Sequence record: OR352945.1
Origin: Escherichia phage AV115
Strand: one strand, 5' to 3'
DNA: 64,000 nucleotides
The translations under genes were made by a program, and so were the position numbers. The notes under the pieces were generated by a model. It did not search any database. It was not told where the DNA came from and was given only the letters and a program-made list of their open reading frames with translations. Numbering within the stretch: position 1 is the stretch's first letter; each line of letters starts with the position of its first letter. Shown here piece by piece: positions 10,351-58,016 of the stretch.

Positions 10351-10368
10351 GGGAGACTCCGGTCTCCC
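10351..10368 (+). terminator. intrinsic terminator after gene 23
   Basis: GGGAGAC-tccg-GTCTCCC followed by T-rich tract. Confidence 0.6.
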
Positions 10369-10378
10369 ATTCTTGTTT

Positions 10379-11038
10379 CTATAGCTTAAAACAATCATCG
10401 CGTTCATTAATCCAATTTCTTATAGTTTTTGCGGATACGTTAAAGAATTCGGCAGCGTAATCGTAGTGGTTAAATTCATGGCCTTTAATAGAAATATCCA
10501 CAAATACAAATTTCTTACCTTTATTAGAATTCTTTCTAATTTTTGCTTTATGCTCTTCTGATAGTTTTCTACCTTTAAGATGAGAATCTCTATTTTTATA
10601 AAACTTTTTATTTGCTATAGATTTGTTTTCTCGATGTTCTTTAGATTCTTTAGAACCTAATTTCTTTTTAGATATTTTGGCCCGAACTTCTTCAGTCATA
10701 CCAGCTTTTGTCTTTTCGGATAACATCTCACGATACCCAGGTTCCTGTAAAGCTACTATAACAGGATTACCCTTGCCGCCTAAGGCTGCATTATAAGTAT
10801 CTGTTCTCATGACAAAAGCCTCGTCAACTAGTTCGGCTTCCTTAGCATACATCTCTTCAGATGTTTCGAAATTGAAAAGGATTTCCTTTTTAAAATTCTC
10901 TAAGCCGTATTTCTTTATGGATTTTACTATGTTAACCCCGGAACCCATATAAGAATCGTTAACATCTGTGGTGGCATGGGCTCCAACATAAATCTTGTTA
11001 TTAATGAGATTGGTTATTTTGTAAATTAAATAATTCAT
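10379..11038 (-). CDS. segD: GIY-YIG homing endonuclease (SegD-like)
   Basis: 219 aa; N-terminal IYKITNLINNKIYVG GIY-YIG motif, K-rich C-terminal DNA-binding region; same 23-24 intergenic position as T4 segD. Confidence 0.8.
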   Translation of the reverse strand: MNYLIYKITNLINNKIYVGAHATTDVNDSYMGSGVNIVKSIKKYGLENFKKEILFNFETSEEMYAKEAELVDEAFVMRTDTYNAALGGKGNPVIVALQEPGYREMLSEKTKAGMTEEVRAKISKKKLGSKESKEHRENKSIANKKFYKNRDSHLKGRKLSEEHKAKIRKNSNKGKKFVFVDISIKGHEFNHYDYAAEFFNVSAKTIRNWINERDDCFKL

Positions 11039-13720: not shown

Positions 13721-13839
13721 AAATCACCATTATAAATAATAATATCAAAATAATTAGCAGAGACTCTATCTCCGACCCGATGTTTAATTTGAATGGATAG
13801 AACCTAGATTCATTATACCATCAAAAAATGTAAAGCATA

Positions 13840-16211: not shown

Positions 16212-16219
16212 TATAAATA
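16212..16219 (+). promoter_or_regulatory. late promoter TATAAATA (uvsW)
   Basis: Exact TATAAATA ~30 nt before uvsW ATG. Confidence 0.65.
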
Positions 16220-18249: not shown

Positions 18250-18281
18250 GATTGCCTCCTAAGTTGAAATTACATATCTAT

Positions 18282-18506
18282 TTATACAACTCTCATATGC
18301 ATATCAATGCCCATATCTTTAGAATAAAAATATTCATCAAGATATCCGGCAAATTTTCCTTTAATATAAAGGACGTCTTCGCCACAAGGATGGTCTGCCA
18401 GGATACGAATATCCTGACGACGTAGACGATACTTTTCCATTAAGAATTTAATTTCAGTTTCAAATTCTTCGTCATTATTAAAGGCATCTTCAATTGAATA
18501 ACGCAT
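18282..18506 (-). CDS. hypothetical protein (uvsY.-1-like)
   Basis: 74 aa ORF directly downstream of uvsY, start overlaps uvsY stop. Confidence 0.55.
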   Translation of the reverse strand: MRYSIEDAFNNDEEFETEIKFLMEKYRLRRQDIRILADHPCGEDVLYIKGKFAGYLDEYFYSKDMGIDMHMRVV

Positions 18507-18919
18507 TATTGCCCCGCTTCAAATTCTCGCATATCCTGGATATGTTTAAGTGCAAAACTACGAGACTTAACTGCGTCAAGTGCACCACTACAGAACTCAA
18601 GTAAAATTCCCCAGTATTGTAAAGTAGTCTCTATTTTAAGCACATCTTTATCTGCAGCCAGGACAGTTTTCATTTCAGATTTCTCGTATCGGTCCATACT
18701 GAATTCATCACCGTCACCTCGTCCCGAGTAGTAGTCTAATCTTGCTTTTAGAGCAGTTTTCTTCTGAGTCTCTATACGCAACATTTCTTTACGAATAAAT
18801 GAGTGCTTACGTAGCCATTTGCTGTATAACTTAACATTATTCGCCGTCTCGTATTGCAACTTTGTCGTATCAATAGCTAAGTCTGCGTCTAACTCTTCCT
18901 GTAAATCTTCCAGCTTCAT
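18506..18919 (-). CDS. uvsY: recombination mediator UvsY
   Basis: 137 aa, T4 UvsY length; MotA-type middle promoter upstream. Confidence 0.9.
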   Translation of the reverse strand: MKLEDLQEELDADLAIDTTKLQYETANNVKLYSKWLRKHSFIRKEMLRIETQKKTALKARLDYYSGRGDGDEFSMDRYEKSEMKTVLAADKDVLKIETTLQYWGILLEFCSGALDAVKSRSFALKHIQDMREFEAGQ

Positions 18920-18974
18920 AATATTCTCTCTTTAACTAATAATCTCCCGGCTGTATCGGAAGGACCTAAAACCA

Positions 18975-18999
18975 TTATACATAGGTCGCCTTGAAGCAT
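18975..18999 (-). promoter_or_regulatory. middle (MotA-dependent) promoter for uvsY
   Basis: Minus strand aaTGCTTCA (MotA-box-like) 12 nt upstream of TATAAT; ~55 nt before uvsY ATG. Confidence 0.5.
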
Positions 19000-19397
19000 T
19001 ACACTCTATTGCTTGACGCTAACTGAAGTTTAATTTGTTCAATATCGTCAGGGTTGTCTACGACCGAAAATCTAATCTCTACTATAACCGTATAGTCATC
19101 ATATACTGGCGTTACACTTACAGAAAGTTTGTCGATGCGTGGCTCATAGTTACGAACAGCTGCCTGGATATTACGCTCAATCGTATCGGCTGTAAGTGGT
19201 GTCATGTTCTCGAAAAGTTCATCAACCAAATCGCAACCAAATTCAGGGTCGAAGGGGCGTGAGCCTTTTCTAGTTGTCACTATGCCAAGAAGACTATTTT
19301 TAATAGAACGAAGTCCTACAGAACGAGCAACGTCCTTGTTCCAATCCATACGCATTTCTGGGTCGATATCTGAATAAAGTTTATTGATATTAGACAT
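18999..19397 (-). CDS. 25: baseplate wedge protein
   Basis: 132 aa; T4 gp25 length and position. Confidence 0.9.
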   Translation of the reverse strand: MSNINKLYSDIDPEMRMDWNKDVARSVGLRSIKNSLLGIVTTRKGSRPFDPEFGCDLVDELFENMTPLTADTIERNIQAAVRNYEPRIDKLSVSVTPVYDDYTVIVEIRFSVVDNPDDIEQIKLQLASSNRV

Positions 19398-20041: not shown

Positions 20042-20049
20042 TATTTATA
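20042..20049 (-). promoter_or_regulatory. late promoter TATAAATA (genes 26/25)
   Basis: Plus-strand TATTTATA = TATAAATA on minus strand, ~19 nt before gene 26 ATG. Confidence 0.6.
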
Positions 20050-20053
20050 AATA
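20046..20053 (+). promoter_or_regulatory. late promoter TATAAATA (gene 51)
   Basis: TATAAATA ~18 nt before gene 51 ATG; overlaps minus-strand copy. Confidence 0.65.
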
Positions 20054-34357: not shown

Positions 34358-34414
34358 CTTATTTCCTTGTTGTTTGACGATAGATTAATAATACCATACT
34401 ATTCGTAAAGCATA

Positions 34415-47214: not shown

Positions 47215-48230
47215 CATTATGTTCAGATAAGGTCGTTAATCTTATCCCGGAATTATATCCAGCTGCATGTCACCATGCAGAGCAGACTATATCTCCAACT
47301 TGTTAAAGCAAGTTGTCTATCGTTTCGAGTCACTTGACCCTACTCCCTAAAGGGATAGTCGTTAGGCATTTATGTAGAACCAATTCCACTTATCAGATTT
47401 TACACGGTAAGTAACTAATCCTGATGAAATTTCAAAATGTCTAGCCGCATCGGCTGCACATTCAAAAATAATCCCATCGCATGAAATCTTTTTGATGTTA
47501 GCTGGCTTTTTGCCTTTCATCTTTTCAGATAGTTTAGTTTTAGTTTTTTCTGAATGTTTGTGATTAAAGAACGGGTTATTTTCACCTGAACGTTTTCGGC
47601 ACTTTCCACAAGTATCGGCCGAAGATGGTATGCGAACACCGCATTTACAAAACTTGTGGTTTTCTGGATTCCATCGGCCATTTTTACTTCCGTGTTTACC
47701 ATAAAGAGCTTTCCGACCATCAGGACCAAGCTTAAGCATCTTAGCTTTAACAGTTTCAGCTCGTTTCTTAGCAATTTCTTCTTTTAATGGATGATTTGAA
47801 AGCACATCGCCAAAAGACGCATCAGCAATATTATATCCATTAATTTTAGAATTTAGCTCTTTAATCCAAAAATTTTCTCGTTCAATAATCAAATCTTTCT
47901 CATATGGAATTTCTTCCAGTATAGAGCATTCAAAAACATTACCATGTTTATTAAAAGACCTTTGAAATTTTATAGAAGAGTGAACACCGTTTTCAAGGTC
48001 TTTAAAATGTCTCTTCCATCTTTTCTCAAAATCTTTAGCACTTCCAACATACACTTTACCGTTTAAAGTGTTTTTAATCTGATAAATTCCGCTTTTCATA
48101 AACACCTCTTTTTATATAGAAGTATTTATTAAAGGGTAGTCCTACAATTTAGCACGGGATTGTCTACTAGAGAGGTCCCCCGTTTAGATAGATTACAAGT
48201 ATAAGTCACCTTATACCTAGGCCTAAATTA
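47215..48230 (-). mobile_element. group I self-splicing intron in td
   Basis: 1016 nt; 5' and 3' intron sequences as I recall the T4 td intron; exon 1 ends ...GGT. Confidence 0.93.
47362..48099 (-). CDS. I-TevI: intron-encoded GIY-YIG homing endonuclease I-TevI
   Basis: 245 aa from ATG 48099 (track GTG start at 48105); MKSGIYQIKNT...; GIY-YIG plus zinc finger. Confidence 0.97.
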   Translation of the reverse strand: MKSGIYQIKNTLNGKVYVGSAKDFEKRWKRHFKDLENGVHSSIKFQRSFNKHGNVFECSILEEIPYEKDLIIERENFWIKELNSKINGYNIADASFGDVLSNHPLKEEIAKKRAETVKAKMLKLGPDGRKALYGKHGSKNGRWNPENHKFCKCGVRIPSSADTCGKCRKRSGENNPFFNHKHSEKTKTKLSEKMKGKKPANIKKISCDGIIFECAADAARHFEISSGLVTYRVKSDKWNWFYINA

Positions 48231-48779: not shown

Positions 48780-49363
48780 TTATATACGCTCTCAGTAATT
48801 TCGGTGAGTTCATCGATTCTGTAGTAATGAGATTCTACCATAGAACGTTGAAGCATAATATCTTGGACGAAATCTTTATCAAGTTGAACATCGGAATTAA
48901 CACGACATTTCTTAATGATTTTAGTCATCACGATTTCATCGGCATAAGGCAGTGCTTGTTTTAATAGAGCAGGGCCACCAATAATAGATACATCAACATG
49001 TTCAGTAGAAAGTTTAAACGGTACGTCAGTTGCAGGGCTAAACAGGTTAATTTCACCACCCGTTACCAAGGTAATAAATTCTGCTTGGGTGATATAGAAC
49101 CGTGCAAGTTCGTTGGTTTTGGTCCTAGGCAGTTTTCTGGCCATATCAGTGACAACCACATGAGTACGATCCTGGAGTAGACGAGGTAATGATGCAAAAG
49201 TCTTAGCACCCATAACCATTACAGTGTTTTTAGTGCGAGCAACAAAGTTACTCATATCTTGTTTGATATGCTTCCATGGAAGTCCATCACCTAATCCAAA
49301 AGCATATTCCAGTTTATCATCAACTGTTTTAGTCGGAGCGCATGCGAATACTAATTTAAGCAT
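48776..49363 (-). CDS. frd: dihydrofolate reductase
   Basis: 195 aa; stop overlaps td start; T4 Frd length and position. Confidence 0.9.
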   Translation of the reverse strand: MLKLVFACAPTKTVDDKLEYAFGLGDGLPWKHIKQDMSNFVARTKNTVMVMGAKTFASLPRLLQDRTHVVVTDMARKLPRTKTNELARFYITQAEFITLVTGGEINLFSPATDVPFKLSTEHVDVSIIGGPALLKQALPYADEIVMTKIIKKCRVNSDVQLDKDFVQDIMLQRSMVESHYYRIDELTEITESVYK

Positions 49364-53130: not shown

Positions 53131-54037
53131 TAATTACACTTGTCAATTTAGAAAGACCAGATTTTACAAAGTATGAATAAATCTTGCCTTTAGGTTGTGG
53201 TTTATATGAGTTATAATACTCTATAATGGTTGAAGCAATATTATCAGGGATATAATCAAAATCAATGAGAACCAAATTTTCTTGATACCGTTTATATTCT
53301 TCTGCACTTAATAATACTTCAGCTTGAGAGCGGTCATTGGCAATTGCTTCAATAATCGTTGTTTTCATGCTTGGAGTTCGTTCACCATCAACTCTGGTAA
53401 ACCAGAAGTCACCACGAACTCGAACCGATGCAACACCGTCTTTACGGTCACCTTTAAGAATTTTAGTCATGCAATCAATTTCAGCAGAACCGTTCTTAAT
53501 TTTAACCCATTTTTTCTGTGGTGGCGACCACTGTTTAACGTTAGGATATTTGTGTAATTGTGTAAAGTCACCATCTGATGCAACAATACATACTTTATGT
53601 CCAGCTAATGACAAATATTTAGTTAATACACCGATATGGTCATCCGCTTCATACTTGTCAATATCCATTACAACGTATGGCATGTATTTCTTAATCTCAT
53701 CAACAACTTGATGGAGTGCAGTAAAATATCCTTCCCAATCCCACTTTGAAGCTTCACGATCGGTTTTACGATTTTTCTTGTAATAGTAAGCAAAGTCACG
53801 TCGCCAATAACCTGAAGTAGCATTATCCATACACAATACAAATTTTGTATAGCCTTGCTTACGGAACATCACTACGTTTTTACGAATTGAATTCAAGATT
53901 ACATGGCGAACCATCGGAACAGTAATTTTATCGCCGTCTTCAAAGTTGTTTAATGCGGCTGCCAATGCAATGTTACTAAAGTCGGCAAGTGCAATACCTT
54001 CTTTGTAATCTTCATCCAACATCATTTCTAAATCCAT
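53120..54037 (-). CDS. rnh: RNase H / 5'-3' exonuclease
   Basis: 305 aa; close to T4 RNase H. Confidence 0.95.
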   Translation of the reverse strand: MDLEMMLDEDYKEGIALADFSNIALAAALNNFEDGDKITVPMVRHVILNSIRKNVVMFRKQGYTKFVLCMDNATSGYWRRDFAYYYKKNRKTDREASKWDWEGYFTALHQVVDEIKKYMPYVVMDIDKYEADDHIGVLTKYLSLAGHKVCIVASDGDFTQLHKYPNVKQWSPPQKKWVKIKNGSAEIDCMTKILKGDRKDGVASVRVRGDFWFTRVDGERTPSMKTTIIEAIANDRSQAEVLLSAEEYKRYQENLVLIDFDYIPDNIASTIIEYYNSYKPQPKGKIYSYFVKSGLSKLTSVINEF

Positions 54038-54140: not shown

Positions 54141-57100
54141 ATGGCCGACATCAAACGTAAGTTCAGAGCCGAAGACGGTCTGGACGCCGGTGGCGACAAG
54201 ATTGTTAACGTAGCATTAGCCGACCGTACAGTAGGTACTGATGGCGTAAACGTTGACTTCCTGGTACAAGAAAACACCGTTCAAGTATATGATTCTACGC
54301 GTGGATATAACAGAGGATTTGTTGTTCTTTATGACAACCGCTTATATCAAGCAATAAATGATATCGTGTCTCCTTCCGGGGCATTTAACCTTTTACAATG
54401 GCGTGCAGTTCGTACTGATGCACAATGGATAACCGTCGCTTCTGGGACTTATCAACTTTCTTCAGGCGAATCGATTTCTGTTAACACTGGTGCCGGCAAT
54501 GATATGGTTTTCACGTTGCCAAATACTCCGGTTGATGGTGATACTGTTGTTTTGGCTGATATTGGTGGAAGAACCGGGACAGTTAAAGTACAGATTAACG
54601 CGTCTGTGCAGAGTATTTTAAACTTTAGAGGTGAACAAGTTCGTACAGTTTTAATGACGCGCCCACGTTCACAACTATTGTTTGTGTTTAGTAATCGTTT
54701 GTGGCAGATGTATATTATCGATTATGGTAAAGAATCAATCACTGTTACACCTGCGACACCATATCAAGCACAAGCAAATGATTTTATCGTTCGTCGTTTT
54801 ACTAGTGCAGCACCAATCAACATTACACTTCCACGTAATGCTAACAATGGTGATATAATCAGCCTAGTCGATTTAGATAGATTAAACCCACTGTATCATA
54901 CAATTGTTAAAACATTTGATGATACAACGTCTATTGGTGAAGTCGGGACTCATATTGCCGAAGGCAGAAATGACTCTGACGCGTTTTTTGTTTTTGATGC
55001 CGCAAATAGTTTATGGCGTATATGGGAAGGCGACCAGAAATCGCGTCTTCGTATTATCCGTGCGGATTCAAATATTCGTCCAAATGAAGAAGTTCTTATT
55101 TTTGGCACAAATAACGCTACAGCCGGAACTATTAATCTTACGCTGCCTTCCGGAATTTTGAGTGGTGACACTGTTAAAATTTCAATGAACTACATGCGTA
55201 AAGGCCAAACAGTAAAAATTAAAGCTGCCGAAGGTGATACAATTGCTTCTTCTGTCGCATTACTTCAGTTCCCTAAACGTTCTGAATATCCACCTGATGC
55301 TCAATGGGTTTCTGTTACTGAACTAGAATTCAATGGCACTACTTCATATGTTCCTGTGTTAGAATTAGCGTATATCGAAGACACTGTTGCTGGTACACGT
55401 TATTGGGTTGTTCAACAAAACGTCCCTACAGTAGAACGTGTTGATGCTGGAACTGATGCTACACGAGCTCGTTTAGGTGTTATTGCTCTTGCTACTCAAG
55501 CGCAAGCAAATGTTGATTTAGAGAATACTCCAGCTAAAGAAGTGGCTATTACTCCGGAAACATTGGCAAATCGTACAGCAACTGAAGCTCGACGTGGTAT
55601 CGCTAAAATTGCTACAACAGCACAAGTTAACCAGAATTCCACAGCATCATTTGTGGACGATACTATTGTTACGCCTAAAAAACTAAATGAGCGTACAGCA
55701 ACTGAAACTCGTCGCGGTCTTGCTGAAATTGCTACTCAGACCGAAACCGATGCTGGTCTTGATGACACAACGATTATTACACCTAAGAAATTGCAGGCAC
55801 GTCAGGGTTCTGAAACACTATCGGGTATAGTTAAATATGTATCAACTACTTCTGCTACTCCTGCTGAAACTCGTGGGGCTGCAGGCACTAACGTTTATAA
55901 TAAAGACACAACTACGTTAACTATTTCGCCTAAAGCTCTCGATCAGTATAAAGCGACTTCTACTCAACAGGGTGCTACTATTCTGGCTCTTGAAAGTGAA
56001 GTAATTGCTGGTCAATCCCAAGCAGGTTATTCTCATGCTGTAGTAACTCCTGAAACACTACATAAGAAAACTTCTACTGATGGACGTATTGGTTTAATTG
56101 AAATTGCTACGCAAGCAGAAACTAATGCTGGGACTGATTATACACGTGCAGTAACGCCTAAGACGTTAAATGATAGGAAAGCTACGGAAGGATTATCCGG
56201 CATAGCCGAACTTGCTACGCAAGTTGAATTTGATACTGGAACTGATGATACTCGTATCTCGACTCCACTGAAAATTAAAACTCATTTTGATTCTTCTGAC
56301 CGTACCAGTGTTAATTCTGATTCCGGACTTATTGAAGAAGGAACCTTGTGGAACCATTATACTCTTGATATTTCTAAAGCAAATGAAACACAACGTGGTA
56401 CACTTCGCGTAGCGACCCAGGCAGAATCTAATGCAGGAACTTTAGATGATGTTCTTATTACTCCTAAAAAGCTTTTAGGGACTAAGTCCACTGAAACGTC
56501 TGAAGGCGTAATTAAGGTTGCTACTCAGGCTGAAACTGTAACAGGAACTTCTGCTAATACTGCTGTATCTCCTAAGAATTTAAAATGGATTGTCCAGAAA
56601 GAACCAACATGGGCTGCTACTACAGCAATTCGCGGATTCGTTAAAACTTCATCCGGTTCTATTACATTCGTTGGTAATGATACAGTCGGTTCTACCCAAG
56701 ATTTAGAACTGTATGAGAAAAATAGCTATGCAGTATCACCATATGAATTAAACCGTGTATTGGCAAATTATTTGCCGTTAAAAGCAAAAGCCGTAGATAG
56801 TAATTTATTGGATGGTCTAGATTCATCTCAGTTCATTCGTAGGGACATCGCCCAGTCAGTTAATGGTTCACTAACCTTAACCCAACAAACGAATCTGAGT
56901 GCCCCTCTTGTATCATCTAGTACTGCTACGTTTGGTGGTTCAGTTTCGGCAAATAGTACATTAACTATTTCTAACTCTGGAACAGCTACTCGTCTGATTT
57001 TTGAAAAAGGACCTCAGTCCGGAACAAATCCTGCTCAAACGATGACTATCAGAGTTTGGGGAAATGAATTTGGTGGTGGTTCAGATACAACACGTTCTAC

Positions 57101-58016
57101 TGTATTTGAAGTTGGTGATGAAACATCTAATCACTTTTATTCTCAACGTAATAAAGCTGGGAATATAACGTTTAGCATTAATGGTACTGTGATGCCAATA
57201 AATGTTAACGCTTCAGGCACGTTAAATGCGAATGGTGTAGCAACATTTGGTCGTTCAGTTACAGCCAATGGTGAATTCATTAGCAAGTCTGCAAATGCTT
57301 TTAGAGCAATAAACGGTGATTATGGATTCTTTATTCGTAATGATGCCTCTAATACCTATTTTTTGCTCACTGCAGCCGGTGATCAGACTGGTGGTTTTAA
57401 TGGATTACGCCCATTATTAATTAATAATCAATCCGGTCAGATTACAATTGGTGAAGGCTTAATCATCGCCAAAGGTGTTACTATAAATTCAGGCGGTTTG
57501 ACTGTTAACTCGAGAATTCGTTCTCAGGGTATTAAAACATCTGATTTATATACTCGTGCGCCAACATCTGATACTGTAGGATTCTGGTCAATCGATATTA
57601 ACGATTCAGCCACTTATAACCAGTTCCCAGGTTATTTTAAAATGGTTGAAAAAACTAATGAAGTGACTGGGCTTCCATACTTAGAACGCGGCGAAGAAGT
57701 TAAATCTCCTGGTACATTGACTCAGTTTGGTAATACACTTGATTCACTTTACCAAGATTGGATTACTTATCCAACAACTCCAGAAGCACGTACCACTCGC
57801 TGGACACGTACATGGCAGAAAACTAAAAATTCTTGGTCAAGTTTTGTTCAGGTATTTGATGGAGGTAACCCTCCTCAACCATCTGATATTGGTGCTTTAC
57901 CATCTGATAATGCTACAATGGGGAATCTTACTATTCGTGATTTCTTAAGGATTGGTAATGTCCGCATTATTCCAGACCCTGTGAATAAATCTGTTAAATT
58001 CGAGTGGATTGAATAA
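54141..58016 (+). CDS. 34: long tail fibre proximal subunit
   Basis: 1291 aa; repeated TPKxL..R.ATE..G.A.IAT fibre motifs; late promoter at 54103. Confidence 0.95.
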   Translation: MADIKRKFRAEDGLDAGGDKIVNVALADRTVGTDGVNVDFLVQENTVQVYDSTRGYNRGFVVLYDNRLYQAINDIVSPSGAFNLLQWRAVRTDAQWITVASGTYQLSSGESISVNTGAGNDMVFTLPNTPVDGDTVVLADIGGRTGTVKVQINASVQSILNFRGEQVRTVLMTRPRSQLLFVFSNRLWQMYIIDYGKESITVTPATPYQAQANDFIVRRFTSAAPINITLPRNANNGDIISLVDLDRLNPLYHTIVKTFDDTTSIGEVGTHIAEGRNDSDAFFVFDAANSLWRIWEGDQKSRLRIIRADSNIRPNEEVLIFGTNNATAGTINLTLPSGILSGDTVKISMNYMRKGQTVKIKAAEGDTIASSVALLQFPKRSEYPPDAQWVSVTELEFNGTTSYVPVLELAYIEDTVAGTRYWVVQQNVPTVERVDAGTDATRARLGVIALATQAQANVDLENTPAKEVAITPETLANRTATEARRGIAKIATTAQVNQNSTASFVDDTIVTPKKLNERTATETRRGLAEIATQTETDAGLDDTTIITPKKLQARQGSETLSGIVKYVSTTSATPAETRGAAGTNVYNKDTTTLTISPKALDQYKATSTQQGATILALESEVIAGQSQAGYSHAVVTPETLHKKTSTDGRIGLIEIATQAETNAGTDYTRAVTPKTLNDRKATEGLSGIAELATQVEFDTGTDDTRISTPLKIKTHFDSSDRTSVNSDSGLIEEGTLWNHYTLDISKANETQRGTLRVATQAESNAGTLDDVLITPKKLLGTKSTETSEGVIKVATQAETVTGTSANTAVSPKNLKWIVQKEPTWAATTAIRGFVKTSSGSITFVGNDTVGSTQDLELYEKNSYAVSPYELNRVLANYLPLKAKAVDSNLLDGLDSSQFIRRDIAQSVNGSLTLTQQTNLSAPLVSSSTATFGGSVSANSTLTISNSGTATRLIFEKGPQSGTNPAQTMTIRVWGNEFGGGSDTTRSTVFEVGDETSNHFYSQRNKAGNITFSINGTVMPINVNASGTLNANGVATFGRSVTANGEFISKSANAFRAINGDYGFFIRNDASNTYFLLTAAGDQTGGFNGLRPLLINNQSGQITIGEGLIIAKGVTINSGGLTVNSRIRSQGIKTSDLYTRAPTSDTVGFWSIDINDSATYNQFPGYFKMVEKTNEVTGLPYLERGEEVKSPGTLTQFGNTLDSLYQDWITYPTTPEARTTRWTRTWQKTKNSWSSFVQVFDGGNPPQPSDIGALPSDNATMGNLTIRDFLRIGNVRIIPDPVNKSVKFEWIE

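Follow-up and report, generated by a model that had tools for sequence, protein, structure and literature searches.

The window analyzed here, a 64-kb stretch of the Escherichia phage AV115 genome (64,000 nt), carries the uvsY region in the same gene order as T4: uvsW on the plus strand; uvsY.-2, uvsY.-1, uvsY, gene 25 and gene 26 on the minus strand; and genes 51 and 27 on the plus strand. Over 1.1 kb, Escherichia phage AV109 shares 99.8% identity with this region, about 150 other members of Mosigvirus (the RB69 group) share at least 95% and T4 only about 71%; by sequence the window is a Mosigvirus (RB69-type) genome. Gene 25, encoding a baseplate wedge protein (18999..19397, minus strand), ends in a TAA stop codon at 19001-18999, and uvsY (18506..18919, minus strand) begins with an ATG at 18919-18917. 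The latter is a 137-aa open reading frame annotated as UvsY in near-identical phages, in agreement with the original prediction, which had named uvsY as the gene served by a middle promoter at this place.

Read 5′ to 3′ on the minus strand, the gene 25 stop codon is followed by aaTGCTTCA (18992..19000), a 12-nt spacer, AGGCGACCTATG (18980..18991), a TATAAT hexamer (18974..18979) and, 54 nt further on, the uvsY ATG. The original prediction had described these elements in this order, with about 55 nt to the start codon, and the sequence bears it out on both points; its coordinates, 18975-18999, were one base short at each end, the real limits being 18974 and 19000. The stop codon overlaps the 5′ edge of aaTGCTTCA, and its T together with that motif makes up TAATGCTTCA. 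Sequence, identity to T4 and consensus match all identify this element as a putative MotA box. According to the published rule, (a/t)(a/t)(a/t)TGCTTtA lies 12 ± 1 bp from TAtaaT (PMC2988021). TAATGCTTCA agrees with this box at 9/10 positions, and its C sits where an earlier consensus allows t or c. The TATAAT hexamer matches the sigma70 −10 consensus at 6/6 positions, and the 12-bp spacing falls within the rule. The predicted transcription start is an A at 18967 on the minus strand, 7 nt past TATAAT, placed by homology to the mapped start of the T4 promoter PuvsY. Relative to this start, the hexamer would span −12 to −7 and the GCTT of the box −30 to −27, the canonical position given 12-bp spacing. 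The uvsY 5′ leader (18920..18966) contains a Shine-Dalgarno-like GAGAG at 18930-18926.

Because the −10 hexamer is perfect, the site could also be read as a host-type or early sigma70 promoter that relies on TATAAT and works independently of MotA. Such a sigma70 route does exist in the wider family, since RB43, which is reported to lack motA, serves uvsY from TTGACT-17-TATAAT. However, a consensus promoter scan did not call a sigma70 promoter at this site, and by eye the best −35 hexamer at 16–18 bp spacing matches TTGACA at only 2/6 positions, which leaves no usable −35. The spacer also holds no TGn extended −10 in register, and the upstream element that is conserved is TGCTTCA, not TTGACA. 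A MotA-independent sigma70 promoter is thus a very unlikely reading of this site. Two further candidates were rejected. A T4 late promoter, which would be gp55-dependent, was excluded as there is no TATAAATA in 18920-19000. A hairpin in the leader (18962-18944), flagged as terminator-like by a scan, was considered as a gene 25 terminator and dismissed, with a minimum free energy of −7.7 kcal/mol and z = +0.62 versus shuffles; it has no T4 equivalent.

In T4, PuvsY belongs to a set of about 60 known middle promoters; its start lies at T4 115371 (Hinton 2010, Table 1, PMC2988021), and it is dependent on MotA and AsiA (PMC2988021). Position 115371 (position 2872 of the T4 extract) is an A 7 nt past TATAAT and aligns with 18967 in the window. 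The two sites share their location, directly after the gene 25 stop codon and 5′ of uvsY, and both are followed by uvsY, uvsY.-1 and uvsY.-2. The T4 box TAATGCTTCA is identical in the window at 10/10 positions and GTATAATG at 8/8. The spacer, in contrast, is 13 nt in T4 and 12 nt in the window, and only 4/13 aligned positions match. By sequence comparison, a constrained box and −10 flanking a free spacer are the classic footprint of two kept elements. The T4-type middle-promoter architecture of the original prediction therefore finds support both in consensus and spacing and in a base-for-base alignment to a mapped MotA/AsiA-dependent promoter. There are also differences: the uvsY leader has a higher G+C content in the window than in T4, and T4 has a TGn extended −10 (TGGTATAAT) that has been lost in the window. 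Because of this loss, MotA dependence would be expected to be at least that of T4. Overall, the site is very probably orthologous to T4 PuvsY, with the same position, and would be a Mosigvirus middle-mode promoter acting by sigma appropriation; that it functions as a promoter here is argued from orthology and conservation. For this phage, we infer where transcription starts, that it depends on MotA and AsiA, and that it falls in the middle period.

The strict form of the motif is rare by chance. TGCTTNA-N11-13-TATAAT occurs three times in the window, versus 0.07 and 0.04 expected in two shuffle tests, and in neither did any shuffle reach three. The looser TGCTTnA-N11-13-TAnnnT occurs 15 times, versus 3.8 ± 2.0 expected (200 shuffles, maximum 9), an enrichment of about four-fold. 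Twelve of these 15 matches lie on the minus strand, which is the prereplicative strand, and half of those 12 (six) sit 31–92 nt 5′ of same-strand start codons. These frequencies bear on the notion that the motif at uvsY is a chance occurrence, or is kept only through the abutting end of gene 25, with late promoters further upstream supplying all uvsY transcripts by read-through. The box does share its TAA with the gene 25 stop codon, and a late-promoter motif 5′ of gene 26 (20042-20049, minus strand) could give read-through transcripts. However, only 0.04–0.07 such motifs are expected per 64 kb, TGCTTCA and TATAAT are noncoding yet conserved although the spacer between them is not, and the T4 orthologue has been mapped experimentally. 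Together, these observations make a fortuitous motif extremely improbable, even less credible than a MotA-independent sigma70 promoter.

Five additional combinations of MotA box and −10 were observed on the minus strand, at 13812-13837, 34388-34412, 47286-47310, 48832-48855 and 53213-53237. They lie 31–92 nt 5′ of minus-strand genes, including rnlB-like and gene-31-like open reading frames, whose T4 counterparts have mapped middle promoters (PMC2988021). From their sequence and placement, these five are probably further middle promoters in this genome region.

The late-promoter motif TATAAATA occurs 18 times in the window, versus 7.3 expected. Two copies overlap back to back in the divergent intergenic region between gene 26 and gene 51 (20042-20049, minus strand, and 20046-20053, plus strand), one lies 30 nt before the uvsW ATG (16212-16219, plus strand) and one before uvsY.-2 (18279-18286, minus strand). 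The minus-strand copies nearest to the uvsY promoter site are those at 18279-18286 and 20042-20049. Judging from these motifs, uvsY probably also receives late read-through transcription.

Conservation of the site was followed in an alignment of the uvsY upstream regions of 12 T4-like phages. TATAAT is conserved in nine of the 12, and seven genera of the Tevenvirinae have a box plus −10 5′ of uvsY. In four of them, Mosigvirus, Tequatrovirus, Winklervirus (X20) and Gaprivervirus (VR26), TGCTT stands right after the gene 25 stop codon and TATAAT 14–15 nt past GCTT. The other three, Karamvirus (CC31, CGCTTTTA), Jiaodavirus (KP179, TGCTAAC) and Dhakavirus (Bp7, TTGCTGTT), combine a variant box with the same TATAAT. 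In the same alignment, Krischvirus MIZ3 (RB49-type) has neither box nor −10 and no recognizable promoter 5′ of uvsY, and nothing comparable is seen 5′ of uvsY in the Vibrio and Aeromonas phages. In RB43, the sigma70-type TTGACT-17-TATAAT occupies the equivalent place, about 60–90 nt 5′ of uvsY. RB49 and RB43 were reported to have no motA and no middle-promoter consensus (Nolan et al., 2006, PMC1524935). The absence of the box from the RB49-type phage and from RB43 suggests that it tracks the activator, and from these comparisons the promoter class appears to switch with the presence of MotA. Database matches to MotA include phages that infect the hosts of CC31, X20, KP179, VR26 and Bp7 (Enterobacter, Serratia, Klebsiella and E. 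coli).

Within the genus, eight Mosigvirus sequences were compared, including five divergent GenBank records. Among them, four sites vary across the 79 nt between gene 25 and uvsY, and none falls in the box or the −10: two are spacer SNPs, one is a length polymorphism in an A-run and one is a SNP near the start codon. The invariance of box and −10 within Mosigvirus rests on few substitutions. In the IMG/VR viral contigs, a search with anchors on either side of the promoter matched only a single contig.

The site had been predicted in RB69 before. Among the 32 middle promoters that Nolan et al. (2006) predicted for RB69 (PMC1524935), their Additional file 4 lists Pm:117605 (117565-117605, minus strand) with a low HMM score of 8.1. 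This purely computational prediction spans the RB69 gene 25/uvsY junction and is the same site; relative to the window, RB69 has one SNP in the spacer (G to A) and a single extra A in the leader. For Mosigvirus, the feature has therefore been on record since 2006 (RB69), and in T4 it has been characterized experimentally. The searchable literature yielded neither transcript mapping nor in vitro transcription for any Mosigvirus.

The site also touches on how uvsY is annotated. In RB69 (AY303349, 117104-117598) and several other Mosigvirus records, uvsY is given as 164 aa, starting from an ATG inside the box TAATGCTTCA. The corresponding in-box ATG in the window (18997-18999, minus strand) lies 80 nt upstream of the 137-aa start and is out of frame. 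The A-run in the leader varies in length among Mosigvirus (2, 3 or 4 A's), and only some of the phages have the in-box ATG in frame with uvsY. On this sequence evidence, the 164-aa uvsY is in all likelihood an artefact of annotation, and the shorter, T4-like start (137 aa) the correct one. The promoter site itself likewise argues against 164-aa models that start inside the MotA box.

With a tail-fibre gene at its end, the window includes neither motA nor asiA, and we infer their presence from relatives. The uvsY promoter locus is 99.1% identical in APCEc01, which codes for a MotA of 210 aa and an AsiA of 90 aa, and RB69 also encodes both proteins. MotA records at ≥95% identity number about 153, in line with the roughly 150 Mosigvirus uvsY records. 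The APCEc01 AsiA is 73% identical to T4 AsiA. The APCEc01 MotA (10360-10992) is 52% identical to T4 MotA overall, with a well-conserved N-terminal activation half and a C-terminal DNA-binding half that is only about 30% identical to that of T4. Despite this divergence of the C-terminal half, the box consensus in the window is still of the T4 type. The enrichment of the motif suggests that Mosigvirus MotA reads the same box, and it is possible that its specificity has been conserved despite the strong divergence of its DNA-binding domain.

If the steps of sigma appropriation are as described for T4 (PMC2988021), AsiA would bind and remodel region 4 of host sigma70 early in infection, rendering the −35 unreadable. 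MotA would bind the box TAATGCTTCA, centred near −30, and contact the C-terminus of sigma70, and region 2 of sigma70 would read TATAAT. Transcription would then run on the minus strand from about 18967 through uvsY, uvsY.-1 and uvsY.-2.

In T4, the same locus is annotated with a replication origin, oriF (ori-uvsY). The minimal T4 oriF consists of a middle promoter and a downstream unwinding element, the latter needing no specific sequence, and a persistent R-loop primes leading-strand synthesis until it is unwound by the late-expressed UvsW (PMC3016281). The middle promoter described here could therefore have a second role, additional to that of serving uvsY, as the priming promoter of an oriF-type origin: immediately downstream, the middle transcript would persist as an R-loop, be processed and prime leading-strand synthesis, with UvsW removing the R-loop later. 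Besides the T4 annotation and the sequence independence of the unwinding element, several features are consistent with such a role. The promoter is orthologous to that of T4 oriF and stands in the same gene context beside late-expressed uvsW; the gene order is kept and includes uvsW, whose ATG has the late-promoter motif TATAAATA 30 nt ahead of it (16212-16219); the promoter of a second T4 origin, oriG/P34i, is also conserved (56356-56381 in the window); and the leader from +21 to +50 has a T4-like 20–30% G+C. However, the A+T-rich unwinding element of T4 oriF, whose place is taken here by the uvsY leader, is not clearly conserved in the window. The first 20 transcribed nucleotides are 60% G+C, and the segment from +1 to +60 is 40% G+C and of average stability, its dG of −74.9 kcal/mol ranking at the 46th percentile within the window, whereas the corresponding T4 segment is 30% G+C with a dG of −68.8 kcal/mol, and only 6.5% of the 60-mers in the window are less stable than it. 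Since the unwinding element needs no specific sequence, these comparisons neither back nor refute origin function, and origin mapping for T4 relatives was not found in the literature. That the promoter doubles as an origin promoter can be put forward only tentatively; in Mosigvirus, promoter and leader might together act as an R-loop origin of the oriF type, despite the G+C-rich start of the leader and its small inverted repeat, with the balance of probability on the negative side.

The oriG-like site deserves a separate description. It is a strict box plus −10 (TGCTTTA-N13-TATAAT) on the minus strand at 56356-56381, antisense inside a gp34-like proximal tail-fibre gene (54141-58016, plus strand). 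Its T4 counterpart in the alignment is P34i, the oriG (ori34) promoter, with ATTTGCTT and GTATAATGG conserved, a conservation that is confounded by protein constraint as the site lies inside coding sequence. The site is absent from the RB69 list of Nolan and coworkers.

For the phage itself, the significance of the uvsY promoter site goes little beyond correct annotation: it marks the start of a transcription unit. For the group, it indicates that MotA/AsiA sigma appropriation, and with it middle-mode control of the recombination mediator UvsY, would have been kept from T4 to the RB69-type phages, a conservation that holds though the DNA-binding domain of MotA has strongly diverged. The wider interest lies in whether the T4 R-loop origins oriF and oriG persist in relatives, a question that reaches beyond sequence alone. 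If the uvsY promoter does prime an origin, then, taken together with the oriG/P34i promoter, R-loop origins would be ancestral and positionally fixed in the Tevenvirinae, with loose sequence needs.
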